A stretch of 64,000 bases of DNA from Candidatus Kerfeldbacteria bacterium (GTDB taxonomy: Bacteria > Patescibacteriota > Patescibacteriia > SBBC01 > CAIJZX01): positions 756,257-820,256 of the forward strand of contig CAVSWO010000002.1 of NCBI GenBank assembly GCA_963731735.1, in the 5' to 3' direction. The translations under genes were made by a program, and so were the position numbers. Positions 12,600 through 31,417 of this stretch are shown here, piece after piece. Numbering within the stretch: position 1 is the stretch's first letter; each line of letters begins with the position of its first letter. The notes below the pieces were generated by a model. That model ran no database searches. It was not told the DNA's origin and saw only the letters and a list, made by a program, of their open reading frames with translations.

Positions 12600-13007
12600 A
12601 TGGACCTCAACAAAGTTACCCTGATCGGGAACATGGTTCGGGAGCCGGAAGGTCGCCGGTTGCCCTCGGGCCAGCAAATTACCAAGTTTAGCCTGGCGAC
12701 CAATTATGCCTGGCAGGACGCCAAGACCAAGGCCAAAAAGGAAGCGGTCGACTTCCACGACGTGATTGCCTGGGGCAAACTCGGCGAGATTGTCCAGCAG
12801 TACGTCAAGAAAGGCAGCAAGATTTACGTGGAAGGTCGCCTGCGGAATCGCAAATATACGACCAAGGACGGCCAAAAGCGGACCGCCAAGGAAATTGTGG
12901 CGGATAACATGATCATGCTTGGTCACCGCTCAACCAAGACCGGCGACCCGGTTAACCGCAAGTTGGTCAAGGAGGATGTCGATGTGGAGGACGTCAGCGA
13001 AGAATAA
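12600..13007 (+). CDS. ssb: single-stranded DNA-binding protein
   Basis: MDLNKVTLIGNMVREPE...acidic C-terminus DVEDVSEE; OB-fold SSB pattern. Confidence 0.9.
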   Translation: MDLNKVTLIGNMVREPEGRRLPSGQQITKFSLATNYAWQDAKTKAKKEAVDFHDVIAWGKLGEIVQQYVKKGSKIYVEGRLRNRKYTTKDGQKRTAKEIVADNMIMLGHRSTKTGDPVNRKLVKEDVDVEDVSEE

Positions 13008-15757: not shown

Positions 15758-16354
15758 ATGAAATGGAACCTCACTATCGTCCTGATTTCCGCCACGCTGG
15801 TTGGATTACTTTGGTTTACCTTTCACGATGCAAATACACCAGCGGGTTCTCAAGAACCAACCGTCTATTACACTAAGGGTCTGATTCAACAATTTGATGG
15901 AACGCCACGCGGATCGTACGAGCTGTACAGAATTCGCGGATTTGATGGCCAACCTGAAATCGTAACCAGCGACCCTGGTAACTCATACCTTCCGCCCCCG
16001 TTGATCCGCCCCAAATATGTAGCCACACGTCCCCACAATTACCCGTACGGATCCGGCCAGGCGATTGATTTTCCATCCTTAACCATTGGCCTGAATGCCG
16101 ATGGAGAACGGCAGGTGACGAATCCTCCGGACATTCCAAACACCGTATACCCGGGTGATGCGATTCTTAGTCCCGATGATCGTTTCTTTGCACAGTCGGC
16201 TGCCGTTTGTACGGAAGTAACCCTGGATGAACCCTGTCCAACAGCCAGCGTGTTGGATATCTATGATTATCAAACGGGGAATATCTGGCATTTTAATCCG
16301 GACCAAGGCGGAGCATTTCGAAGGGATGTTGCCACACCTTTTCCTTCTAGATGA
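15758..16354 (+). CDS. hypothetical membrane-anchored/secreted protein
   Basis: N-terminal TM helix; 198 aa. Confidence 0.5.
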   Translation: MKWNLTIVLISATLVGLLWFTFHDANTPAGSQEPTVYYTKGLIQQFDGTPRGSYELYRIRGFDGQPEIVTSDPGNSYLPPPLIRPKYVATRPHNYPYGSGQAIDFPSLTIGLNADGERQVTNPPDIPNTVYPGDAILSPDDRFFAQSAAVCTEVTLDEPCPTASVLDIYDYQTGNIWHFNPDQGGAFRRDVATPFPSR

Positions 16355-16435
16355 CCATGAACTGCTGGTTGACCTTGAAGGTTTACAGGAACGATCACAC
16401 AATATTACGCCATTGTTGATCTCAACACTGGAAAA

Positions 16436-16999
16436 ATGCATTTCGTGTACGATAACGAGCAGAGCATCATAAATTATCAAATGTTGAATGTTATTGATGA
16501 TAACACCATCCTTGCTCTTCGCTGGCCGTTTGCGAGCGAAAATGCATCCGATGCCTTGGTGAAGTTTAATTTTATTCAGAGGAAAGACGTGGTGATTTTG
16601 GAATTTCCAGAAGCAGCTTGTCCGGAATTGAATTTTCCGATTACACAAATGGGGTATTTCTTCTCACCAGATTACAAAGGCCTGGATTACCGCAACATAC
16701 CCACAAACACTAATCGAGTGCTGGCTCAAACCGGAGAAGTCCGGGCACTTTCCGCTGACGGGAACTACGTGGTGACTTTTGAAGCCTACACCGATACCGC
16801 CGGGTACGGTTCCGGACGGCTGGTGCTTTGGGATACCGTTCAACACCGTTCACGGGTTATATATGACCAGAAATTTGGTAGCGGCAATTCGGGTCCCGTT
16901 AATGCCGACCCAAACCCACCCCTTCAAGTTGGGGATAGTATCTACGGTTTCGTCGGAATGGACATGAATGGCATTCCGGTATTCATGCCCGCCTACTAG
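16436..16999 (+). CDS. hypothetical protein
   Basis: 187-aa ORF in the same frame as the previous gene, but separated from it by four in-frame TGA codons. Confidence 0.45.
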   Translation: MHFVYDNEQSIINYQMLNVIDDNTILALRWPFASENASDALVKFNFIQRKDVVILEFPEAACPELNFPITQMGYFFSPDYKGLDYRNIPTNTNRVLAQTGEVRALSADGNYVVTFEAYTDTAGYGSGRLVLWDTVQHRSRVIYDQKFGSGNSGPVNADPNPPLQVGDSIYGFVGMDMNGIPVFMPAY

Positions 17000-17760: not shown

Positions 17761-18519
17761 ATGAATAATGACAAGTTGCTTGATTTCGGTGTCACAGCCT
17801 ATCGGAATCTTAACGTGCCGGTAGTTCCTGGGTTGTCTGAGTATCTCGACGCGGTTTCGGCGTCCTTCTGTCCCTACATCCGCCCATCAGCTAGGCGTGA
17901 GCAGATAACATTTACCGTTGTCGAATCGTCGCTCACGACGCAGGCCCAGGCGGAAGCACTGGTATTTGCGAGCGGGTTACTCTTAACTGAGCTGTTACGG
18001 CAGAACCGTCGCTCGGTGATAGGGTCAGGACAACGCAGTCTGTTTTGCGAGAACATCATTTTCTCCCTCCCGAACTTGGGCAATGCATTCGGAAAACCGA
18101 TGCTGGCGTGGCCGCACTGGGTCTTGAAGAGCCGCTATACACAGGTCGGTGTGCTATTCGGGAAGTTCTGGAAAGGCGCGATCGAGCATGGGAAAGATGG
18201 CCGACCACTGCCGGTTCCACCATGTCACCTTCTGTCGATCCGTGAAAGCGTTTTGAAGCAGGATCCAAAGTTCTTCGAACAGGCGTCTTGGTTGCGGCCC
18301 GAATTCGAGGCATCGGAAGATTCGGGTCAGGACGTCTTCCACCTTAAGAAAATGAATCTGCAGTTAGCTACTCAGATCGAAGCCTTTTGCCGGTCGTCTG
18401 ATTCATTGTCCTTTCAGCAATTGCTGCGTATACTCATAATGAGTAATATCTACGATCAGCTCAAAGCAAACGCAACCACTGAACTCGAGACTCGTAAAGC
18501 TTTATTAAGAAAAGGATAA
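17761..18519 (+). CDS. hypothetical protein
   Basis: 252 aa. The kinase-like gene follows 7 nt downstream. Confidence 0.5.
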   Translation: MNNDKLLDFGVTAYRNLNVPVVPGLSEYLDAVSASFCPYIRPSARREQITFTVVESSLTTQAQAEALVFASGLLLTELLRQNRRSVIGSGQRSLFCENIIFSLPNLGNAFGKPMLAWPHWVLKSRYTQVGVLFGKFWKGAIEHGKDGRPLPVPPCHLLSIRESVLKQDPKFFEQASWLRPEFEASEDSGQDVFHLKKMNLQLATQIEAFCRSSDSLSFQQLLRILIMSNIYDQLKANATTELETRKALLRKG

Positions 18520-18525
18520 CGTCGA

Positions 18526-19404
18526 ATGAATCTACCAACATCAGTAACTCGGCTGCTCAATGTGTTGCAGCTTGAATACAAGGAAACCGTCGCCGCACGA
18601 CGTGGTAGCCTTGTACTTACTGTGATGCAATCCGGCCAGCGGTGTGTTCTCAAGATTCACATGGAGGATGGCGACCCCTTGTCTGTAGGTAAGGCCGAGT
18701 TGCTGCAGCATGAGGCTACTATACTGGCGCAGATCCCTCATCTTACACGCCAGCTGTATCGGGCTCACGGTACGACAGATGGAATGTACTGGCTATTGAC
18801 GCGTCAGGTTCAAGGGCCTGAGGCGCGCCTTGCTGTTCGTGAAATTCTACATGATCACAACACCAATGATGCACGGAAACACCTGTTGGGAATTCTGACG
18901 ATGATCACCGAATTCTATGACCGGTTATATACGAGCGGGTACTTGCATGGTGACGTGCAACCAGCACATACGTTGCTCGAGGGTAATGCTGTGACGGTCA
19001 TTGACTGGGGTCTCGCGCGTCCTGTCGACAAGCAGCATCCGCTTTACCGAGGCGGGTTCGTCTACTATGTCGCCCCGGAAGTGGCCAAGGACATGCAGAC
19101 CAAGGCCAATCCGGTCAAGTACGGTGCGCAGGCTGAAGTCTATGCGCTGGGAACGACGCTCTTTACGATCGTCACCGGCGAGCTGGCGATCGACTTCGGG
19201 GTGCCGAAACAAGAGCTCCGCGCCACCCCAATGCCACTGAAACTCGAACGAGTCATCAGTAACCATATCCGCTCCTTTTCTGATGTAGGGTCTCTCTCGA
19301 TCCCCGAACTCGAAGATGTGCTTATGCGGGCCATGGCTACGGATCCGGCCAGTCGATTTGCGCATCCATCGGAATTCCATCGGCACCTTCAATCGCTGTT
19401 ATAA
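18526..19404 (+). CDS. protein kinase-like fold protein with a degenerate catalytic loop
   Basis: VLKIH (beta3 Lys), HGDVQPAHT in place of HRDxKxxN, IDWG in place of DFG, YVAPE (APE motif). Confidence 0.55.
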   Translation: MNLPTSVTRLLNVLQLEYKETVAARRGSLVLTVMQSGQRCVLKIHMEDGDPLSVGKAELLQHEATILAQIPHLTRQLYRAHGTTDGMYWLLTRQVQGPEARLAVREILHDHNTNDARKHLLGILTMITEFYDRLYTSGYLHGDVQPAHTLLEGNAVTVIDWGLARPVDKQHPLYRGGFVYYVAPEVAKDMQTKANPVKYGAQAEVYALGTTLFTIVTGELAIDFGVPKQELRATPMPLKLERVISNHIRSFSDVGSLSIPELEDVLMRAMATDPASRFAHPSEFHRHLQSLL

Positions 19405-20172: not shown

Positions 20173-20490
20173 GGTGTACTCCTCTCCGAAATTAACAAAG
20201 AACGCCGCCGACTGGTTGCCGGGTAGCGTATCGCTTATGCCAATTGCCTAAACCACCTAACCTAAATTTACATCATTTAATGGTACTATGCAAGAAGCGC
20301 CTCGACCCTCAACTATTACCCCCTAAACTAGCCATCCAACCCCAAGTTGCACAATGGGTCGATTTCTGCTATATTCACAGCGTATTTTTTGATACGCCGA
20401 CGTGAATATTTTTACGGCAATCAGTAGCCTGGCTGAGCATCATCGAGTAACCCGCCCCTCCACGAGGAAGGGCGTGATTGTCGTTATTCC

Positions 20491-20622
20491 ATGATCGGCT
20501 GGCTGCTCCTACTCCTCGCGGTGGCCGAATTCGGGCTCGGCCTGTACTTTATTTTCCGCTACCGAGGAAATCAAGCGACGCTGCCACACGACAAGACAAG
20601 TTATATTTTGGTGAAGAAATAA
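20491..20622 (+). pseudogene. orphan N-terminal fragment of a 7TM sensor (GC-rich)
   Basis: The 43-codon MIGWLLLLLAVAEFGLGLYFIFRYRGNQ resembles the N-termini of the 7TM sensor paralogs at 20902, 21746 and 23876. It sits at the left edge of AT island 2. Confidence 0.35.
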
Positions 20623-20644
20623 TGAATCCCGTTAGAGTTGTTGT

Positions 20645-20905
20645 ATGTTTTACACTTAAGTACTTGTCAGTAAGACTAACGGTCGATGGTATACAGGCTT
20701 CACGAACGATTTGCGGAAACGTTTGATGCAACATCACGCTGGAAAATCGCCGTATACCCGCCACCGAGGACCCTATGAACTTATGTATTATGAAGCATGT
20801 ATGAATGAATTTGATGCAAAGGCTCGAGAGCGTTATCTCAAATCTGGAATAGGAAAACGATATCTGAAAAATCGTCTCAAACGTTTCCTAACTCTAACGG
20901 GATGA
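20645..20905 (+). pseudogene. GIY-YIG (COG2827-type) gene with an in-frame TAA at codon 5
   Basis: Reads [26 protein letters not shown]...[18 protein letters not shown]. The TAA sits where the family has Tyr (TAC/TAT). Confidence 0.5.
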
Positions 20906-21573
20906 AAACTCTCCTTCTTACCTTAACGTATCTGGTCGGAGCGGGGGAACTTCTTTTATCCGGATTTTTTTGGAAAACAAATAGCGGAAATACAATACGG
21001 CGAATCATGTCATTTTTCGCTCTTGTTACTGGATTTTGGGTTATTTCAACAGCAGCGGCATCGTATAATACATCGATTTCCGGAATTACGTGGTATCGTT
21101 CCGCACACGTTTTTGGTCCTTTTTTAGTCACCACACTTTTTGTTTTTGCCACTCAATTTCCGGTTAGTACATGGCGACTTGACAAGTTACATTATGTATT
21201 TATCTATGCGCCAGCAACACTGTTTTCTCTAATAATTATGAGTTCGACTGAGTTTTTGGCCGGATTCACTGCGACATCTACAGATTCTGGAAGTTGGTTT
21301 GGAGGATCAATATATTGGCTGTATTCGTTACTGTTATTATGTTTTTATCTGGCCACAGTTATAGTATTAGTTACAAAATACAGAATTGTAGATGGGATAC
21401 ATCGAAAAAATTTGACCATTGTGTTTGTATCCATTGTTCTCGGCGGTTTTCCGGCGATAGTAACAGATGTACTTTTTTCATTATTTACAAATGAAGGACG
21501 ATACGCGATTGTGGGTAGTCTTATGACGGTATTTTGGCTAGGTATTACGAGTTATATAGTATTGAAGAAATGA
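20902..21573 (+). CDS. standalone 7TM sensor-domain membrane protein (paralog 1)
   Basis: 223 aa and polytopic. Its N-terminus is shared with the HK at 23876 and with fragments at 20491 and 21572. Confidence 0.6.
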
Positions 21574-21767
21574 AAACTCTCCTCCTCACCCTAACCTATC
21601 TCGTGGGCGCAGGAGAACTCATCCTTGCAATTTATTTTTGGGCAACGAATTTGAATAAGTGGCATTTATATAAACCTCAACTGTGGAGCTTTTTCAACAA
21701 AAGTTTGGCTTGGGATAACGATTTATATAATCAAAAGAATGATTTATGTACCCGATTTTTGACATAG
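21572..21767 (+). pseudogene. duplicated N-terminal fragment of the 7TM paralog
   Basis: [17 protein letters not shown] repeats the first 17 aa of the 20902 gene. It runs into the next gene in a different frame. Confidence 0.4.
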
Positions 21768-22414
21768 TTTTCCTATCAGGAGTTGGTCTGGCAGAAATAT
21801 TTCTCGCATTATTTTTTTTCAAAAAATATCAAAAAAACTCGGCTATTACAGCTTTCGGATTCTTTACTCTTTCAATAGGTCTTTGGGTATTTCTTAACGG
21901 GATTGCTTACCTATTTCCTCGAGGAAGTCAAATTATCGATATCGAGGGTAGATTGATTTTTGTGGCAGCGGCATTTATTTTTCCCTTCCTATACATTTTT
22001 TTAAAAAACTTTCCACTCCCAACTTTTGTTTCAAAAATGCAGTGGTTTTGGATATTATTTCCAGCCGCGCTCATTTCTCTTACGGTCTTTTCCAATAATG
22101 TTATTATAGGTTTTGCAACTGATACTTACGCCCTTACACAGTATGGGAGTGACTTTTGGATATACACCATATATTTGGCCTTTATGTTTTCGTTAGTACT
22201 CATCGAATCTTGGCAATCGTATGTACGAAAGGATAGCGCACATACGAGAGTCCTTAAATACGTATTTATTGGTTTGCTTATTTCTGGGACTCTAGGGATG
22301 CTCAATAATTTATTACTACCATATTTGTTGCATGTTAAAGAGTTTAGCTGGCTAGGATCAGGAGCGTCCATTATTTGGTTAGCACTTATGGGCTGGGTTT
22401 TGGTAGGTGATTAA
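21746..22414 (+). CDS. standalone 7TM sensor-domain membrane protein (paralog 2)
   Basis: 222 aa and polytopic. Confidence 0.55.
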   Translation: MYPIFDIVFLSGVGLAEIFLALFFFKKYQKNSAITAFGFFTLSIGLWVFLNGIAYLFPRGSQIIDIEGRLIFVAAAFIFPFLYIFLKNFPLPTFVSKMQWFWILFPAALISLTVFSNNVIIGFATDTYALTQYGSDFWIYTIYLAFMFSLVLIESWQSYVRKDSAHTRVLKYVFIGLLISGTLGMLNNLLLPYLLHVKEFSWLGSGASIIWLALMGWVLVGD

Positions 22415-22654
22415 TGTTATGATCAAAACTCTAATAACTCATTCAGACTATAAGAGATACTTTTGTTTTGCTAAAAATTTCAGATCGGAGGCTACAATTA
22501 TTTTATCAATATTATCCTAAATGTGTTATGCTAACGAAGTATTTACTAAAGTTATATAGTCTTAAGAAGGCGAAATACTTACCTAAATAATACTTAATCA
22601 AACTTAAGAGTATAATTTCAAGACCCAGTAGTAATTTCTGAAGACTAAGCGATT

Positions 22655-23866
22655 ATGGACACTTTTGAAATCATAACAAACAAGGTTAAGTCAGAAGGAC
22701 TTCAACCAGACTTCCATGTGCTTCAATCGGGTGTTAATGAACCCGAGTGTACAATTGAAGGCAAGAAGTACATACTATTTTGCGCAAATAACTATTTAGG
22801 TTTAACTCAAAATCCTAAAGTTAAAAAAGCAGCGATTGAGTCTGTAAAAAAGTATGGAATGGGACCAGGGGGGTCTAGGGTTATTAGTGGTAACGTTGAT
22901 ATTATTGTTGAGCTTGAACAGAAATTATCTGAGCTAACCCAAACGGAGGACAGCATCACATTCCCAACGGGTTACATGGCTAACATTGCTGTTTTTAGTG
23001 CGGTAATGGATCCTGTTTTTGGAAGTATTTTTGGTGACGACGCAATCAACAATCAAGGTGGTGTGATATTTTCTGATGAAGATAACCATGGATCGATCAT
23101 TGATGGGTGTCGACTAAGTTCAGCGAAAAAGGTGGTTTTCAAACATAACAATATTGATGATTTAAATAAAAAAATTAAGTTAAATGATCTTCCAAATAAG
23201 TTAATTGTAACAGAGGGGGTATTTAGTTTAGAAGGCGAAATAAATAATATTCCGAAATATATTGAAGTTGCCAAATCGAATGGTGCAAAATTAATGGTTG
23301 ATGACGCACACGGGGTTGGTATTTTGGGAAAACAAGGAGGGGGTGTTGGAGATCACTTCGACTGTTCAGAAGATATCGATATTTATATGGCTTGCATGGA
23401 CAAAGCCTTAGGTGGTACAGGTGGATTTCTTGCTGGGAAGAAGGCTTTAATAGATTTCCTGCGAATAAGTACAAGATCATCCCTACTATCCTCAGCAATC
23501 ACAACTAGTATGGCTGGAGCAATGATAAAATCAATAGAACTAATAAGTAATGGGAGTAAGTTGCGCGAGCAACTATTTGAAAAATCAGATTATCTTAGAA
23601 GAGCTTTAAAAGAAAATGGTTTTACAATTTTGGGTGACGACAATATTCCCTCCGTTCCCCTCCTCGTTGGGAATGATGCTATTGGGGTTAGATTTGAAAA
23701 AGCCCTTTTTGAGGAAGGGATTTATCTTCCAGTTGTGCGTTGGCCCGCCGTACCATATGGCACTTCCAGATTTAGAATTATTGTGATGGCACAACATGAA
23801 AAAAAACACCTGGATAAACTAGTGGACGCGTGTACCCGCGTAGGCAAAACACTATCTATAATATAA
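22655..23866 (+). CDS. PLP-dependent alpha-oxoamine synthase family (BioF/Kbl/serine palmitoyltransferase-like)
   Basis: NNYLGL, GSRVISG, DEDNHGSIIDG, VDDAHGVG and DKALGGTGGF (Lys) motifs. Confidence 0.75.
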   Translation: MDTFEIITNKVKSEGLQPDFHVLQSGVNEPECTIEGKKYILFCANNYLGLTQNPKVKKAAIESVKKYGMGPGGSRVISGNVDIIVELEQKLSELTQTEDSITFPTGYMANIAVFSAVMDPVFGSIFGDDAINNQGGVIFSDEDNHGSIIDGCRLSSAKKVVFKHNNIDDLNKKIKLNDLPNKLIVTEGVFSLEGEINNIPKYIEVAKSNGAKLMVDDAHGVGILGKQGGGVGDHFDCSEDIDIYMACMDKALGGTGGFLAGKKALIDFLRISTRSSLLSSAITTSMAGAMIKSIELISNGSKLREQLFEKSDYLRRALKENGFTILGDDNIPSVPLLVGNDAIGVRFEKALFEEGIYLPVVRWPAVPYGTSRFRIIVMAQHEKKHLDKLVDACTRVGKTLSII

Positions 23867-23875
23867 ATACCATTT

Positions 23876-26708
23876 ATGCTTAATGCTGGGTATTTAACCC
23901 TATTTGTTGCCGTTGCGAATCTTTTGCTCGGATTTTTCGTTTTATCGCGTGGTAAATCAAAACCATTATACATTTCATTTTTTCTTTTCACTCTTGTCGA
24001 TGCAATTTGGAGCCTTACAAATTTTGTATTCGAATTCTATTCTCAATCAATATTTATATTTAGAAGTCAATACGCAACAGGAGGTTTGACCCTTGTAATG
24101 GCTCTAATATGGATTTATTACCTTATTAGGAAAGACTGGCTTTCAAAGAATGAAATTATTTCAACCACAGTTCTTGGGGTAATAATTTTTTCTATTCCAT
24201 ATCTTGGAGGACTTGTCGTGGACTCGATTTCAAAGTTACCAGATGGTAGCTATGATTTTATACCTGGACCGCTTTTTGATTTTTATAGCGGATTACTACT
24301 TATCATACTTGGCTACCTTTTCTATTTGTTGATTAGGGCTGAAAGAAGAGTGAGAGGGATACAAAAAGTCCAGCTCAGGTATGTTATTGCTGGTGTATCG
24401 ATTTTCGCAGCAGTCGCCATATCTTTTGGATTAATACTGCCCCTATTTGGCTACAGTTCGATAGTGGCATTCGATGCTCAAAGCTCGTTGTTTTGGATCA
24501 TATTAACCACCTATGCCATTCTTCGTCATCGTTTACTCGATATTAAGTTTGTACTGACCAGGTCCATTACTTATGGGATTCTCCTTACTCTCGTAACCTT
24601 ATCTTTTGTATTTATTACATTCATTTCAGGACAATTCTTTGGCAATACAACTATAAGTAGGAATATCATTGCATTTATTATCGCAATACTTATAGTTTTT
24701 GGACTCGATCCCCTGAAGAATTGGCTTTCAAGAATTTCCGATAAAATATTTTTCCAAGCCAAGGTAGACTATCAACAATTACTTCGAGAAGTTTCAGAAA
24801 TTCTTGCATTTGAGATTAGCCGTGATGAATTGATTATTAAAATTCGAGAGAAACTTCAAGAAGGATTGAAGGTTAAATTTTCCGGTATATTATTGCGCAA
24901 TCAATCCAATGGAAAAACACAGAAATTTGAAGCTCTTCAAGATCTCTTACATCAATACCCAAACCTCTCTCTCCAAAACACCAGTCCGCTCGTTCACTTT
25001 CTCCGCGAACACAAACACTACTCAATCGTTGAATCACTCGAACGGAAAATAGAAGATGCAGATGATGGGGAACGCACAGAACTCGAGACCTCGAAAGCCG
25101 AATTCGACCGCTTGGAGGCTTCTTTAGTTACGCCAATTTTTGCTCAAGGGCACCTAATCGCGATTTTAGCCCTGGGTCCAAAACTTTCTGGCGATAGTTT
25201 TTCAAACGATGACATCAACCTAATCGAAGTATTATCGCCGCAAATCGGTTCGGCTATCCAAAAAGCCAACCTGTTTGAAGAAGTCCGGCAGTTTAATATC
25301 AGCCTGCAACTCAAAGTCGACCAAGCCACCGCCCAACTGCGCGAAAAGAACGTCTCGCTTGAAACGCTGCAGCACATTAACAAGGAGATTACTCAAACGC
25401 TCGATTTCGAAAAAGTTGTTCAGCAAATCGCCGACTCGGTCAGCACCGAACTCGGTTACCAAGGCGCGATCTTGGCCTTCCTGGATGATGACGGGAAAAC
25501 GTCACGCGCGCGGGCGATTACTCATACCAAGTTGACGGAAACGGCCCTGAAGCTCTTACCGACGCATTTCAGTGAATATCACAGCGACATCACCGACCCG
25601 AAAACCCATAATTTGAGTGGCAAGGTATACCAGACCGGACAGACGCAAATCACCAACAACTTCGCGCGCGTGGTCTCGCCGCCGTTGCCGAAGCTGCTAG
25701 CCCAGACAATTCAAAAGGTGGTCGGGCATTAAATCAATGGTCTTAATCCCGATTGTATCCGAAGGGAAAACTATCGGCGTGATTGAAATCGGTACCAAGA
25801 AGGATCAAGGAAAACATCACCCAGCAAGAACTGGAAACTATGCAATCGGTGGCGGACGAACTCGGAATCGTGTCCCGAAACTTCAAACTCTTCGGTCAGT
25901 TACAAAAAACCAACCAACAACTCGAAGTTGCCAACGAAAACTTGAAAGAACTCGACCAGCGCCAAGTCCGAATTCGTGTCGATCGCTTCGCACCAATTGC
26001 GGACGCCGATGACCGGCATTATGGGCTACCTGTCGATGATGACCCAGGGCGATTTCGGTAAGATTAAACCCGAGCATCGTCGAAATTCTCCGCAACCTGC
26101 TGTCCGAATCGCAGCGCATGATCCGCCTGATCAACCAATTCCTGAATGTCTCGAAGATTGAGGCCGGCAAGTTTACCTACACTAAGAAACCGGTCCAGAT
26201 TCTGGATTTGATTACCCAGGAAGTTTCAGAGGTCAAAAAAGCGGCGGCCGATAAAGGCCTGAAACTGGTGGTCAAATTGCCGAAGACCCTACCGACGATC
26301 GTAGCCGACGGCGATAAGATTCAAGATGTTATTTTGAACCTGGTCGATAACGCGATTAAATACACGGCCAAAGGCAGCGTGACCGTCAGCGCCAGCCACG
26401 AAGACGGCTTGGTTCACGTGAAAGTCAAAGACTCGGGCGTCGGGATTAAACCGGAAGACGCGCATGAATTGTTCAATAAGTTCGTGCGTGGCAGCGGCAT
26501 CGCCCAGATTCATCCGGACGGATCGGGTTTGGGCCTGTTTATCGCCAAATCGATCATTGACGCCCACGGCGGTCGGATTTGGGTCGAGTCCGACGGCGAA
26601 GGCAAAGGGAGCACCTTTCAGTTCGTGATTCCGATTCAGCCGCCGCCCGGCTTGGAAGAAACGCCGAAGTCGGCGGCCGCCCACGTTGTTTCAACCAAGC
26701 ATACGTAA
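23876..26708 (+). pseudogene. 7TM-GAF-GAF-HisKA-HATPase sensor histidine kinase, interrupted by four frameshifts
   Basis: Protein-like segments continue across frame changes near 25735, 25800, 25960 and 26075. They include VLIPIVSEGKTIGVIEIG, AKSEFVSIASHQLRTP and the HATPase_c G-boxes. GC composition switches mid-gene at ~25250. Confidence 0.55.
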
Positions 26709-26712
26709 ATAG

Positions 26713-26760
26713 GCTCTTTCAAAGAGCGCCGTCGCGACGGCGCTTGACTTTTTTTATTTT
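26713..26760 (+). terminator. double-hairpin rho-independent terminator
   Basis: GCTCTTTcAAAGAGC then GCGCCGTCGCGACGGCGC then TTGACTTTTTTTATTTT. Confidence 0.7.
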
Positions 26761-27086: not shown

Positions 27087-28193
27087 GTGCATATTTTCAT
27101 CGTTAAGCCAGTTGGCTGGCGCTGTAATATCCGCTGCCAGTATTGTTTCTATCACGAGTGTCCGTTGGCCCAGGCTGGTGATCAGACGCTCATGACTGAC
27201 GACACGTTGACCCACGTGATTCGCGAAGGGCTCGCAATGAACCCGCGAGTAGCGGAGTTCGACTGGCTCGGCGGTGAGCCACTGCTGGCTGGTCTCGAGT
27301 TCTATCAGCGAGTGGTGGAACTGCAGAGTCAATTCTGCGCTCCTCACCAGCGCATCACCAATCGGGTGCAGACGAATGGAACGCTCCTGGATGACCGCTG
27401 GGTAACATTCTTCGCGAAACACCGGTTTACGGTTGGACTGAGCATGGACGGTCCAGCCGCAATCAATGACCGCTTTCGTTATGACGCAGACGGGCGCGGT
27501 ACCACCGATCAAGTGCTCGTGGCGTTGCGACTGCTCCGGCAGCATAACGTCTACCATGGCGTTATCTGTGTGGTGAATAGCCTCAATGTTCACCACCCTG
27601 ACGAAGTGCTGGAGTTCTTCGTACGTCAGGGTATCAACCGGCTGGCGTTCAACCACGCCAAGGGCCTGTTTCCCGACGGCCGACCGCTACCGACCACAGT
27701 CGATCCAGATGACTACGCGCGATTCATGTGCCGACTGTTCGATCGCTGGCTAGAGAAGGACGATCCGAACCTGGTCATCCGCCAATTCAAGAGCATTCTT
27801 CACTCGCTCATGGGTGGCCGGTACCGAATGTGCGTCCTGAGCAATCAATGCCACACCTTGTTTGGCATCGAAAGTGACGGGACGGTCTATCCCTGCGAAG
27901 ATCATCCTGGTGAGGGCTGGCAGTCGTTCGGTAATGTTCGTGACGGCGCGGCGCGGCTCCTGGCGCATCCGAACCGACTGACTTTCAAACAGAAAGTTGA
28001 TGATGCCAAGCGGGCCTGTCAATCGTGTCGGTGGTGGAACATCTGCCAGGGTGGGTGTCCCCGCGATTACTACTTCGGGGTCGCTTCCATGGGGCGCCAC
28101 AACCGTATGTGCAAGGCATACAGAACGCTCTTTGAGCACATCGTGTCCAGGATTAAGCCCTACCTGGAAACGACAGCAAGGCCGGAATCGTAG
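27087..28193 (+). CDS. radical SAM/SPASM-domain enzyme (anSME-like peptide-modifying maturase)
   Basis: CNIRCQYCFY (CX3CX2C). The C-terminal SPASM cysteines (YPCEDH, CQSCRWWNICQGGCPRD, MCKAY) are present. Confidence 0.85.
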   Translation: MHIFIVKPVGWRCNIRCQYCFYHECPLAQAGDQTLMTDDTLTHVIREGLAMNPRVAEFDWLGGEPLLAGLEFYQRVVELQSQFCAPHQRITNRVQTNGTLLDDRWVTFFAKHRFTVGLSMDGPAAINDRFRYDADGRGTTDQVLVALRLLRQHNVYHGVICVVNSLNVHHPDEVLEFFVRQGINRLAFNHAKGLFPDGRPLPTTVDPDDYARFMCRLFDRWLEKDDPNLVIRQFKSILHSLMGGRYRMCVLSNQCHTLFGIESDGTVYPCEDHPGEGWQSFGNVRDGAARLLAHPNRLTFKQKVDDAKRACQSCRWWNICQGGCPRDYYFGVASMGRHNRMCKAYRTLFEHIVSRIKPYLETTARPES

Positions 28194-29234
28194 TTACGAT
28201 TCCGGTTTTTTTATGTATTCTTGGAGTAGGTGTGCAACCCGGCGGAAACTGTCAAGAGTGACGCTACGTTTATTCTGTAATCTTTCTTGCCAGTATGGTT
28301 GAAGATGATACGCGGCGTATGTTCGCCAGGCATGTAGCATTACTTTTTTTTGTGTATTGTGTTTATGCTTCGTCTGCTTGTAGAGTTGATCGAGCGGAGT
28401 TTGTAGATATTGGCGTCCAAGGATCCCTTGTGGTACGAGACTTGATACTAGGCCTTCGTTAAGCCAAACCCAGAGAGAAGGTGAGGGAAGCGATCGAAAA
28501 AGAGTCATCTGCTGTTGGGTAAAAAGCCGCAATTTTCGTTCATATGAGGGGCGCATAAAATGCGCATGGATAATTTCGTGGATAAGAATACCTCGCATTT
28601 TTTTATTACGGCACGAGGTGCGGAATTGGAGATCGCCAGCCTCGAGGACTACCGCATCTTTACCCACGTTAGCATTGCCACCGCCAACTGGGCATGGTAA
28701 TCCCTTCGGTCGCATGAGAAGAATCAAACGAATCTCTGCTTGGGGCCGAGCTTTCGGATAAAGGATCTGGAGGTCACGCATGCAGTGTTGGACCGATTGA
28801 GACTGCCAGATATGCTCCAATACTCTTTGGGCGGTGAGGAGGCGCGCCTTCTCACCCGACCAAACTTTCTCAAAACGAGGGTGTAGCGTTTTTTTGATGT
28901 TCGCAAGTTGATCATAATCTTTTGTTGATAAAGCGAGTGCCAGCGATGGCCAGACTTCAGCCTCTGGAAAGAGCTGGAAGTACGTACCGAGAAATTGACG
29001 CGAGGTACCGAGTCCATACGTACGCATGAGTTTCCGGAAATCATGAAGCGCGCGCTGCTCTGAAGTACGTAAGGGGCCAGTCAAATGTAACCACTTTTTG
29101 TTATAGGCAGGGTTACAGGAAAAGTGCCACTCGCTTAAGTTAGAAATAAAAAAATAGAAATTCGCCTCACGGGAGCAAAAAACTTTCAATTGCATACCTA
29201 CCGTGAGTGTACTCGGACGGCTTACAAAGTTCAA
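28194..29234 (-). CDS. HExxH zinc-metallopeptidase-like protein (MA-clan, HEIIH ... WLNEGLVS)
   Basis: 346-aa ORF in an AT-rich stretch. It is a paralog of the 30773 gene. TTG start, with an alternative ATG at 29195. Confidence 0.55.
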   Translation of the reverse strand: MNFVSRPSTLTVGMQLKVFCSREANFYFFISNLSEWHFSCNPAYNKKWLHLTGPLRTSEQRALHDFRKLMRTYGLGTSRQFLGTYFQLFPEAEVWPSLALALSTKDYDQLANIKKTLHPRFEKVWSGEKARLLTAQRVLEHIWQSQSVQHCMRDLQILYPKARPQAEIRLILLMRPKGLPCPVGGGNANVGKDAVVLEAGDLQFRTSCRNKKMRGILIHEIIHAHFMRPSYERKLRLFTQQQMTLFRSLPSPSLWVWLNEGLVSSLVPQGILGRQYLQTPLDQLYKQTKHKHNTQKKVMLHAWRTYAAYHLQPYWQERLQNKRSVTLDSFRRVAHLLQEYIKKPES

Positions 29235-29954
29235 TACCTATCACGTTCATCGAAATTTACGTATACTGAGGCATATGGCTCATGTCCGTTTTTCCATCAA
29301 TCTCCGCGAGGACGCGAAAAACTGGGTGCGACTCGGTCAAATGAAACGCATGCAGCCATCAAACAGCTACTCAAACTCGGCTGTGATGTCCGAATAAACA
29401 CGTGTGTGGGATCGCATAACCTGAGTGTTATGCCAGAGTTTCTCCATTTCGTGAGCGAGGAATTCGGGATTTTGCATAGGCTTGTGCACGTCGAGCCCCT
29501 TGGGCGAGCGAAAGAGAACTCTGGACTGACTGTCGAAGACAAAGCCTTTGCCCGAGTGGTCAACCAGCGTTCTGGCAAGGTGGAGTTTTTAGATAGTCAC
29601 GACGAAGTGTCTGCTCGTGACTTTCGTCTTCCGCCATGCGGCGTCGGACAATCCATGGCATTTGTCGATGCCTATGGAAATGTTTCGCTCTGTCCAACAA
29701 TGACCCAGAATGAGTACCCAGGTTTCTTGGCGGGTTCTTTACGAAAAACGCCTTTGCAAGAAATCTGGACGCGATCTCCAACGTTCATCCGATATCGTGG
29801 CATCCAGTGCCGTGATGTCACGACCTGTCCGGCCAAAACGCAGTGCAAGGGCGGTTGTCGCAGCCACGCTTTCATTGCGACTGGCAATCCCAATGCTCCT
29901 GACCCTGGAATGTGTGCGGTTTTCCAAGATCAGCATAACCAGAACGGCCCATAA
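29190..29954 (+). CDS. C-terminal half of a second radical SAM enzyme (barrel end + SPASM) lacking the CX3CX2C core; possibly a remnant
   Basis: LPPCGVGQS..VDAYGNVSLCP..CRDVTTCPAKTQCKGGCRSHA..DPGMC resembles PqqE/MftC/SCIFF-maturase C-terminal halves. It has only a TTG start and overlaps the convergent peptidase gene by 45 nt. Confidence 0.4.
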   Translation: MHTYRECTRTAYKVQYLSRSSKFTYTEAYGSCPFFHQSPRGREKLGATRSNETHAAIKQLLKLGCDVRINTCVGSHNLSVMPEFLHFVSEEFGILHRLVHVEPLGRAKENSGLTVEDKAFARVVNQRSGKVEFLDSHDEVSARDFRLPPCGVGQSMAFVDAYGNVSLCPTMTQNEYPGFLAGSLRKTPLQEIWTRSPTFIRYRGIQCRDVTTCPAKTQCKGGCRSHAFIATGNPNAPDPGMCAVFQDQHNQNGP

Positions 29955-29975
29955 CATTGCTTGTTATGGGCCGTT
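29944..29975 (+). terminator. 14-bp perfect hairpin
   Basis: AACGGCCCATAACAttgctTGTTATGGGCCGTT followed by an AT-rich tract. Confidence 0.6.
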
Positions 29976-29992
29976 ATCTTATAATAAAAATA

Positions 29993-30766
29993 ATGTCGAG
30001 CCTTGCTCACGTTCGATTTAAACTGGTGCCGGAAAAGCTTGAGATCGATACGCTGTATGGATTTTTGTTTGAGGACCCTTGGGGATGGGGGGGTCGAATT
30101 GTTCGTAAGCATCCGAATATAAAACCAGTGCTCAAACTTACCCAAGAATCGGTCCGGATACAATATCTTCGAAAATACGTACGAGACTTTCGTCGTTCAC
30201 GCGCAGTCGAAATGCAGCGGCAACTTGAGAAGCTGCCTCGGGCCTGGGGAAGGGTTGAACAGCCGGCTTTTATCGCCCTTCAGCAACTGATTGAAACGAA
30301 TTGGCCCAAGCAGCGTCCCATACATGCCCTGATGTCGATTAACCCGATCTGTCCAAGATTTTTGCGAGAGTGGACTTTTTTTTGGTACTGGCGCTACAAA
30401 CAAAAAGATATTTTTGAAATTATTCTTCATGAATGCAGCCACTTTCTGTATTTTCAAAAATGGCAGGAAGTTTTCCCGCAAGATCGTCCACGATCTTTTG
30501 ACTCGCCGCATCTTATTTGGCATCTAAGTGAAATTCTAACCCCAATTTTACTGATGCAACCGGAGCTACAGAAATATTTACGCCAGAAACCAACTTTTTA
30601 CCGCGAGCACCAACGGCTTCGAATCAAAGGCAAGACCGCGCCAGCGTATTTTCGGGATTTGTATCATCGTTCAAGAAATCGACATGAGTCGTTTGCATGC
30701 TTTCTAATTAAGGCACGGAAGGCTATTGAACAACAAAAAAGAAAATTCGCAAACGTATATTCTTGA
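29993..30766 (+). CDS. HExxH metallopeptidase-like protein (HECSH)
   Basis: ILHECSHFLYF motif. Third member of the local HExxH paralog set. Confidence 0.5.
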   Translation: MSSLAHVRFKLVPEKLEIDTLYGFLFEDPWGWGGRIVRKHPNIKPVLKLTQESVRIQYLRKYVRDFRRSRAVEMQRQLEKLPRAWGRVEQPAFIALQQLIETNWPKQRPIHALMSINPICPRFLREWTFFWYWRYKQKDIFEIILHECSHFLYFQKWQEVFPQDRPRSFDSPHLIWHLSEILTPILLMQPELQKYLRQKPTFYREHQRLRIKGKTAPAYFRDLYHRSRNRHESFACFLIKARKAIEQQKRKFANVYS

Positions 30767-30772
30767 TTAAGC

Positions 30773-31417
30773 ATGCGTCAACAACAACCATCGCCAGTTA
30801 TCATTGCTCGAGCCTTTCAAACGCGACCCGAATTAGCGCGCTTTGCCAAACGCACGCACGCTCGTTACCAGCGATGGTTTAAGACCAAGCTGTCATTACC
30901 AACAATCGTTATTTTGCAACAGCGACGGCTGGTTCGTGAATTCTGGAAATCGGCGCAAGACGACTGGAAAGTCGGTTGGTATCGAAACAAGGTGATTTAC
31001 CTCCTTGATCAGTCGCTGGCAGAAAGAAGCCGAGGGGATTGGTACCGACTCCTTGGGCATGAACTCGCGCACCCGTTTATTAATTATGTGAGCGAAGGTA
31101 AGGCACCGCGATGGCTGAATGAGGGCTTAGCAAGTCGCTTAGCCGGGCAACGCCAGCACCGCGCGACACCCAAAGAAGTGGTGACGTTTTTTCGTCAACG
31201 AAAATCACCAAATAATTTGAATGTCTATGGTGTTGGTCGAGTTATGACCGATGAGGTATTGGCACGGTACGGCCGACAGAAAATCCTGCAATTTCTCAAA
31301 CAAATCGCTAAGACACGAACGATCTCTCTGGCTTTCCGTCAGACGTTTGGCCTCAGTTGGCACGACCATATGCGTGCGTACCAGACTAGGAACCACACTT
31401 CATTGTTGAATAGATAG
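30773..31417 (+). CDS. HExxH metallopeptidase-like protein (HELAH ... WLNEGLASRL; Peptidase_MA-like)
   Basis: LLGHELAHPFINYV followed 14 aa later by RWLNEGLA. Confidence 0.6.
   Translation: MRQQQPSPVIIARAFQTRPELARFAKRTHARYQRWFKTKLSLPTIVILQQRRLVREFWKSAQDDWKVGWYRNKVIYLLDQSLAERSRGDWYRLLGHELAHPFINYVSEGKAPRWLNEGLASRLAGQRQHRATPKEVVTFFRQRKSPNNLNVYGVGRVMTDEVLARYGRQKILQFLKQIAKTRTISLAFRQTFGLSWHDHMRAYQTRNHTSLLNR

Follow-up and report, generated by a model that had tools for sequence, protein, structure and literature searches.

Why does an AT-rich block end inside the gene of a sensor histidine kinase, and why can the rest of that kinase be read only by changing frame four times? These questions are raised by the region at 20.4-26.7 kb of a 64,000-nucleotide stretch of a Candidatus Kerfeldbacteria genome (contig CAVSWO010000002.1), referred to here as the window. 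A preliminary description made from the sequence alone took the region for an AT-rich island inserted into a native kinase gene. Comparison with related genomes leads us to a different answer, namely that the region is probably the window copy of a conserved Kerfeldbacteria/Patescibacteria signalling locus that carries a sensor/enzyme specificity cassette. Such a locus would consist of tandem stand-alone seven-transmembrane (7TM) paralogues of the kinase's own sensor, followed by one or more enzymes joining acyl groups and amino acids and then by a kinase with the architecture 7TM-GAF-GAF-HisKA-HATPase. Its 5' block, comprising the 7TM genes, the enzyme genes, the transmembrane (TM) sensor of the kinase and the first GAF domain, is hypervariable, with a low GC content in all species examined, and the kinase core is conserved at a genome-like GC. 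Because the 5' block varies while the core is conserved, we understand the AT-rich island and the seemingly chimeric open reading frame (ORF) as a cassette evolving and recombining apart from the core, and not as a recent insertion.

The break in composition itself was borne out by windowed GC and by GC at third codon positions (GC3). The whole window has 53% GC and the AT-rich block, at approximately 20,600-25,200, has 36%. Windowed GC stays at 0.31-0.40 over approximately 20,650-24,850, compared with 0.49-0.58 in the flanks, and recovers from approximately 24,850 to approximately 25,300. The recovery thus lies inside the kinase ORF as previously described, but it reaches a level of approximately 0.50-0.53 and not the 58% given for position 25,250 or so. 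GC3 is 0.30-0.34 in the two 7TM genes, the alpha-oxoamine synthase (AONS) gene and codons 1-420 of the kinase, as against 0.62-0.69 in the kinase 3' half and 0.59-0.74 in neighbouring genes, hence the drop sits in codon choice too and goes beyond amino-acid content.

The break is not peculiar to this genome. A scan of species-representative genomes yielded 80 loci, of which 34 had enough sequence to compare GC from -1500 to +1000 around the kinase start with GC from +1500 to +2800. The 5' part was lower in GC than the kinase 3' part in every one of the 34, with a median gap of 15 points; in 33 of them the gap reached 8 points or more. In an alignment of 36 kinase genes, GC3 averages 0.25-0.34 over codons 1-280, 0.43-0.49 over codons 281-400 and 0.55-0.68 beyond, and it tracks protein conservation (Spearman rho 0.77); the window kinase lies on the same curve, with its step approximately 100 codons later. 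The low-GC stretch comprises a stand-alone 7TM gene, an AONS gene and the first approximately 1.2 kb of the kinase in sister locus L001, and four 7TM genes, a FeeM-type gene, a ThiF gene and the kinase start in sister locus L003. Since the low-GC block reaches into the kinase in all these orthologous loci, the "chimeric" ORF is a family trait. That a native GC-rich kinase was recently cut off from its N-terminus by the insertion of a foreign AT-rich island with a 7TM-GAF module is consequently very unlikely: in 34 of 34 relatives a low-GC block occupies the corresponding chromosomal position, with its border likewise inside the kinase, the supposed N-terminal stub belongs to a stand-alone 7TM gene and has that gene's C-terminal tail, and neither an integrase nor a tRNA nor a direct-repeat boundary was found at the block borders. 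This scenario would account for the sharp change of composition at both borders, for the host-like GC3 of the stub at 20491 and for the mosaic affinities of the kinase (see below). Scans of the window for tRNA genes and Rfam families gave no matches, and the sole mobility-type gene in the block is an 86-codon GIY-YIG remnant.

The kinase was compared with its orthologues after the four extra bases had been removed. The repaired protein matches HisKA with 64.6 bits and HATPase_c with 92.6 bits and places H705 within the motif SHQLRTP, whereas the unrepaired frame is broken four times. Approximately 40 full-length orthologues of 930-955 aa, from metagenomic Patescibacteria several of which are named Candidatus Kerfeldbacteria, align to it at 55-66% identity and 97-100% coverage. 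As these match along the entire length, the kinase is one conserved gene and not a genome-specific fusion. An alignment to orthologous kinases had been proposed as a check on the breakpoint, and it puts the low-GC border approximately 1 kb inside the kinase in the relatives too. The TM region (residues 1-220) has 21-37% identity to most orthologues, with 70% to P0001 and 59% to P0005, while the core has 63-79% identity to all orthologues compared. The kinase is thus a mosaic, its TM region nearest to P0001, its first GAF domain nearest to P0002 and its core alike to all, and the earlier suggestion that the sensor half has a history other than that of the kinase core is upheld. The kinase N-terminus gave no match to HisKA_7TM (PF16927, cutoff 28.6 bits) at E ≤ 0.01, a cutoff that many orthologues and the L003 paralogues pass, and no NCBIfam model matched the sensor region.

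What changes together with the sensor is the enzyme. In sister loci the kinase is preceded by one to four stand-alone 7TM proteins of approximately 220 aa or 7TM-GAF proteins of approximately 470 aa, and then by varied enzymes. Over the 35 loci compared, window included, the enzyme classes were FeeM-type N-acyl amino acid synthases (15 loci), S-adenosylmethionine (SAM) methyltransferases (11), ThiF-like proteins (9), AONS (6, plus L089 and L090), a protein of approximately 520 aa with no Pfam match (4), GNAT proteins (4), glycosyltransferases (2) and an acyltransferase-HAD protein (1). The protein of approximately 520 aa is possibly adenylate-forming, to judge from its STSGSTG motif. All 12 of the most similar TM pairs have an identical enzyme set, with unremarkable core identity (permutation p = 0.0005, 35 loci). 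Compared with the window, L089 has 56% identity in AONS, 59% in the TM region and 62% in the core, and the corresponding values for L001 are 38%, 29% and 76%; AONS identity tracks TM identity and not core identity. Sensor and synthase therefore co-vary apart from the kinase core, as would be expected of a pherotype-like system, with a contribution that physical linkage could make. With or without linkage, the sensor and enzyme block has, to judge from these identities, a history separate from that of the kinase core. In many sister loci (L018, L019, L024, L026, L030, L032, L033, L035, L036, L038 and others) 7TM proteins of 450-490 aa replace those of approximately 220 aa. They lie approximately -3 to -5.8 kb from the kinase, are without a kinase domain in the L018 example and are often preceded by a conserved protein of approximately 200 aa of unknown function.

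The enzyme of the window belongs to the alpha-oxoamine synthase superfamily (PF00155, 142.7 bits, E 2e-41), with the catalytic motifs NHGS, DDAHG and MDKALG readable in its translation. Its gene (up to 23866) is followed directly by that of the kinase (from 23876), an adjacency of synthase and putative receptor that recurs in L001, L089, L090 and four further loci. Its closest solved relatives in the PDB are bacterial serine palmitoyltransferases (SPT; 3A2B, E 1.7e-75) and KBL/BioF enzymes, with CqsA far weaker (E 2e-16). The score stays under every NCBIfam equivalog cutoff (SPT 325.7 bits against 640, KBL 344.9 against 460, BioF 338 against 426), and also for the CqsA-type autoinducer synthase (NF005526), with 166.9 bits against 428. 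Enzymes of sister loci likewise couple acyl groups with amino acids. On the simplest reading of these sequences, the adjacent enzyme of the cassette would produce a lipid-like conjugate of an amino acid, the cognate 7TM domain would perceive this conjugate in the membrane, and the signal would be relayed via the GAF domains to autophosphorylation and on to a response regulator.

More tentatively, the locus could be a pherotype-like system, in which synthase and matching 7TM module travel as a low-GC cassette that is exchanged between lineages with the breakpoint inside the kinase. The family-wide GC trough would then be a trace of this exchange, or would have arisen because the region has diverged too far for recombination and GC-biased homologous recombination has been lost there, and the stand-alone 7TM proteins would be spare or decoy receptors. 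Within the species the one second assembly compared, which is near-identical, carries the same cassette. Several points weigh against the signalling interpretation. The co-variation of sensor and enzyme could come partly from their physical linkage, or from linkage alone; a signal molecule, its secretion and any density dependence would go beyond what sequences can tell; and the enzyme is nearer to serine palmitoyltransferase and KBL than to the autoinducer synthase CqsA, which leaves a role in membrane lipids equally open. The corresponding alternative holds that the products of the cassette enzymes are lipids of the envelope, either sphingoid or N-acyl amino-acid lipids, and that the 7TM kinase monitors the state of the membrane and not a secreted signal. 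The affinity of the AONS to bacterial serine palmitoyltransferases, the FeeM-type N-acyl amino acid synthases, acyltransferases and glycosyltransferases of sister loci and a sensor entirely embedded in the membrane all agree with it. Hypervariability and swaps between unrelated enzyme classes at one locus are, however, not expected of housekeeping lipid genes, and we regard this alternative as serious but less likely than not.

Does the left border betray an insertion event? The inventory of the block given in the preliminary description proved accurate: a GIY-YIG remnant, two stand-alone 7TM paralogues, an extra N-terminal fragment and an alpha-oxoamine synthase are all present. So is the 43-codon GC-rich ORF noticed for its resemblance to the start of a 7TM sensor. 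Its residues 1-31 match the N-termini of stand-alone 7TM proteins of relatives, with 61% identity over 31 aa to the L003 paralogue b (L003 6555-7211; tblastn E 1.6e-5) and a likewise matching N-terminus of the L089 7TM protein; GC3 over these 31 codons is 0.74. A Pfam search of the 43-aa product gave no match. It had been taken for the orphaned N-terminus of the kinase, an identification contradicted by the tail that it shares with the stand-alone b-type gene. Approximately 175 central codons are gone in comparison with the N- and C-termini of L003 b and the L089 7TM protein, and judged by both its ends the stub is what an internal deletion left of a stand-alone 7TM gene. A direct repeat (D2) connects 20596-20620 with 21547-21571. 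The non-coding stretch conserved upstream of the array corresponds to sequence that in L003 lies directly upstream of the first stand-alone 7TM gene.

The GIY-YIG gene (PF01541, 27.6 bits against a cutoff of 22.6, E 3.8e-6) lies precisely where the stop codon of one tandem 7TM gene overlaps the start codon of the next, and the perfect 14-nt inverted repeat flanking it occurs in the window and in its second assembly (L006, below) and in no other locus fetched. Three-frame reading showed a single premature in-frame TAA at codon 5 and not a frameshift, and the sequence is identical in the second assembly. With its inverted repeat the unit looks like a small mobile or formerly mobile element. The 7TM gene that follows matches the L003 paralogues c and d with E values of 1e-29 to 1e-36 and HisKA_7TM (PF16927) with 24.3 bits, under the gathering cutoff of 28.6. 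A direct repeat (D1) with 82% DNA identity over 50 nt connects 21570-21619 with 20902-20951 and marks the start of a further c/d-type paralogue, of which a 5' stub is left. The second complete 7TM gene has 25-28% identity to the L003 paralogues b, c and d (E down to 1e-14) and no Pfam or NCBIfam match. In the window the cassette thus holds real lesions: one 7TM gene has suffered a deletion, another survives as a stub and the GIY-YIG gene has a nonsense mutation.

An independent k-mer assembly of the same region (L006, run ERR11594398) allowed us to separate biological features from artefacts. It reproduces 20440-25557 with four mismatches and without gaps and spans the left border and the GC step; therefore the left-border lesions, the left border and the GC step are reproducible. 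It is hardly credible, then, that the contig is an assembly chimera of an AT-rich and a GC-rich organism joined inside a conserved kinase. The composition step does fall in a conserved stretch of a gene, as such a join would require, but the independent assembly runs across both places gap-free and the orthologous genes of 36 other assemblies show the same step. The second assembly ends at 25557 and restarts at 26535. At the edges of this gap it differs from the window at six positions in 555 nt (approximately 1.1%), all of them synonymous third-position transitions, compared with 0.04% elsewhere; there are four differences in 11 kb downstream and none in 4.7 kb of the island. Two haplotypes thus differ specifically in the kinase 3' half, and both are under purifying selection, given that all six differences are synonymous. 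This strain-variable patch begins at the GC step, which hints at a short tract of recombination in the 3' half of the kinase.

This gap of approximately 1 kb (25558-26534) is the only uncovered stretch, and it contains all four frameshifts. The reading frame of the kinase (start coordinate modulo 3) runs 2, 0, 1, 2, 0, four changes of one extra base (+1) each, all within 350 nt of a 2.8-kb gene. Meaningful peptide across the junctions had been pointed out, and the orthologue alignment confirms the peptide on either side of every one. We consider it most likely, at somewhat better than an even chance, that the frameshifts are consensus errors from merging two strain haplotypes. Each extra base could be explained if the consensus had retained the two alleles of a variable site side by side, GG[G/C], AA[A/C], CA[T/C] and CAG/CGC. 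The idea of an assembly or consensus artefact, raised in the preliminary description for the whole stretch, hence survives as the leading explanation of the frameshifts and fails for the GC step and the left border, which the second assembly reproduces. The size of the source contig (822,872 bp) and a single T8/T7 indel would point to indel-prone long-read data. This indel, the only one between the assemblies, lies in a T run at 30369-30376, which is one base longer in the window (T8) than in the independent contig L007 (T7); T8 gives an intact 269-aa ORF (29957-30766), T7 splits it, and the tract difference could be a sequencing error or a phase-variable tract.

A serious competitor, if short of an even chance, is that the frameshifts are real and record a very recent inactivation of the kinase in a strain whose locus is decaying as a whole. 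Four findings count in its favour and against an artefact: the locus has real lesions in both assemblies (the deleted 7TM gene, the 7TM stub and the GIY-YIG nonsense codon); the neighbouring gene 15758-16999 also needs a +1/-1 pair; an insert of 4.7 kb parts the response regulator from the kinase; and the source assembly is otherwise accurate where checkable, agreeing to 99.9% with the independent one, with 1 indel in 16 kb at which the window version is the intact one. Other findings speak against inactivation. A rough estimate puts the chance that four +1 events cluster within 350 nt of 2.8 kb at approximately 0.008, and the lesions that the second assembly confirms do not include any single-base indel. 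Among residues invariant in 19 orthologues, the window differs at 1 of 123 downstream of the first frameshift and at 2 of 81 upstream, so that the loss of conserved residues after the first disruption, as in a pseudogene of old decay, is not seen and the statement that the kinase has since decayed appears doubtful. Moreover, all six haplotype differences in the kinase 3' half are synonymous, which implies selection up to the very recent past. Programmed +1 ribosomal frameshifting, for which one might invoke the common direction of all four shifts and the coincidence of the first with a TAA stop, has a practically negligible probability: the other three sites have neither a stop nor a shared slippery motif and leave long alternative frames open, and the kinase is a single ORF, needing no shift, in 33 of 34 orthologous loci. 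Explanations other than artefact or recent inactivation retain little probability altogether.

A homology-based scan of approximately 20 kb of homologue-covered housekeeping genes detected no other change of frame, the one exception among the genes scanned being the +1/-1 pair in 15758-16999. Both this result and the 33 intact orthologous kinases favour an artefact or a very recent event. Look-ups of the exact products of the window ORFs 26118-26708, 25737-26012, 15758-16354 and 18526-19404 gave no match, and a protein search with the kinase returned no near-identical fragment. A second kinase copy misleading the assembly was ruled out for the window, where none exists.

Coordinates of features in and around the kinase locus (window positions; L001 and L003 are sister loci)
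Feature	Position	Strand	Details
Conserved non-coding stretch 5' of the 7TM array	20357-20436	+	blastn 75% identity to L003 5761-5838
43-codon ORF, b-type stand-alone 7TM remnant	20491-20622	+	31 N-terminal codons and tail TSYILVKK with stop codon kept
Perfect 14-nt inverted repeat flanking GIY-YIG, left arm	20626-20639	n/a	
Small GIY-YIG nuclease gene, 86 codons	20645-20905	+	PF01541
14-nt inverted repeat, right arm	20890-20903	n/a	
Stand-alone 7TM sensor-like protein, 223 aa, c/d type	20902-21573	+	33-35% identity to L003 paralogues c, d
5' stub of a further c/d-type 7TM paralogue	21570-21650	+	Direct repeat D1, N-terminal comparison
Stand-alone 7TM protein, 222 aa	21746-22414	+	tblastn to L003 paralogues b, c, d
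Pyridoxal phosphate (PLP)-dependent alpha-oxoamine synthase, 403 aa	22655-23866	+	SPT/KBL/BioF clade
Sensor histidine kinase, 942 aa	23876-26708	+	After removal of four extra bases
Kinase TM sensor	23876-24715		
Kinase GAF1	~24860-25270		
Kinase GAF2	25400-25869		
Kinase HisKA	25961-26168		Pfam on repaired protein
Kinase HATPase	26307-26639		Pfam on repaired protein
GC transition within kinase gene	24850-25300		GC3 ~0.3 to ~0.65; step also seen in 36 orthologous genes
Strain-variable patch	25177-26606	n/a	Six synonymous single-nucleotide differences from second assembly; includes uncovered 25558-26534
Frameshift 1	25724-25727	+	Extra base in GTC GG[G]C ATT
Frameshift 2	25811-25814	+	Extra base in GGA AA[A]C ATC; repaired IGTKKDQGNITQQE, P0049 IGTKKNQGDISAQE
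Frameshift 3	25958-25960	+	Extra base in GAC CAG [C] GCC, directly 5' of invariant AKSEF
Frameshift 4	26078-26085	+	Extra base in CAT [C] GTC GAA ATT
Receiver-only response regulator, 142 aa	31438-31866	+	85% aa identity to L001 12836-13246

The genomic setting of the cassette is conserved as well. The window is collinear with L001 and L003 in the order single-stranded DNA-binding protein (SSB; 12600-13007), cassette, response regulator, Pyr_redox, PGK, enolase and two iPGM genes, and with this content an interpretation of 31.8-45.6 kb as a respiratory operon was rejected. The counterpart of the regulator in L001 directly follows the L001 kinase, and PF00072 was matched on the L007 copy of the regulator. 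In the window, the 4.7 kb of other genes between kinase and regulator include, at 27087-31417, a radical SAM/SPASM maturase that is near to anaerobic sulfatase maturase and just under the cutoff, a SPASM-only ORF without the radical-SAM half and three ORFs with one HExxH motif each (HEIIH, HECSH, HELAH); this insert may be a peptide-modification cluster. On the other side, gene 15758-16999 is the orthologue of a 420-aa protein of L003 (45% identity), with a product that its hydrophobic N-terminus marks as putatively secreted. Its +1 shift near 16315 and -1 shift near 16395 put 27 codons out of frame, with four in-frame stops. Pfam searches of the fragmentary ORFs at 10-17 kb gave no sign of split domains. 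Upstream of the cassette, two neighbouring genes (17761-19404) encode a DUF6875 protein and a Ser/Thr-kinase-like protein, a pair that was not found beside the kinase in the relatives examined.

How new is such a locus? The adjacency of synthase and kinase in the candidate phyla radiation (CPR) is not, since Bernard et al. 2020 (PMC7567580) recorded 51 pairs of CqsA homologue and kinase and 18 pairs of LuxI homologue and kinase there as putative complete quorum-sensing systems, in a list of genomes that includes Kerfeldbacteria. Our literature search found no description of a family-wide low-GC hypervariable block with its border inside a kinase, of a link between sensor type and enzyme set or of tandem stand-alone 7TM paralogues. 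We regard the locus as a moderately interesting variant of the predicted CPR synthase/receptor system, with eye-catching features that are mostly ordinary beside those of its relatives. If the cassette reading is true, a chemical signal and its receptor would diversify together in ultra-small episymbiotic bacteria, much like the peptide pherotypes of Gram-positive bacteria, and this would provide a testable handle on kin or host recognition by uncultured cells. For genome scanning the locus is a caution that an abrupt change of GC within a gene may be a conserved property of a family and need not record a recent horizontal transfer, and that a cluster of same-direction frameshifts in a strain-variable patch is no proof of a pseudogene without reads.

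Among known systems, the alpha-hydroxyketone quorum sensing of Vibrio (CqsA/CqsS) and Legionella (LqsA/LqsS) likewise has a PLP-dependent gene of the AONS family beside a polytopic membrane histidine kinase. The window differs from both in its enzyme, which by the E values given above is nearer to SPT/KBL/BioF than to CqsA, in its kinase, which combines a 7TM sensor with no NCBIfam match and two GAF domains, and in the stand-alone 7TM paralogues accompanying that kinase. The FeeM-type synthases (PF21926/PF13444) that occupy the enzyme slot of 15 of the 35 loci have no homologue in the window, where AONS takes the slot. In agrBDCA of Staphylococcus and comQXPA of Bacillus, the genes for signal production and the membrane sensor of the kinase are hypervariable, the core is conserved and the boundary lies inside the kinase gene. 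The window locus resembles them in its variable synthase and sensor, its conserved core and a border within the kinase. Their signals, however, are peptides, and their variation is found within species, whereas that of the window locus is shown between species only. O-antigen and capsule loci for surface polysaccharides, finally, hold a persistently AT-rich, fast-changing block at a fixed position between conserved flanks. The window locus shares with these clusters the AT-rich block at a fixed site, and it is unlike them in that the block carries signalling genes and has one of its borders inside a gene.

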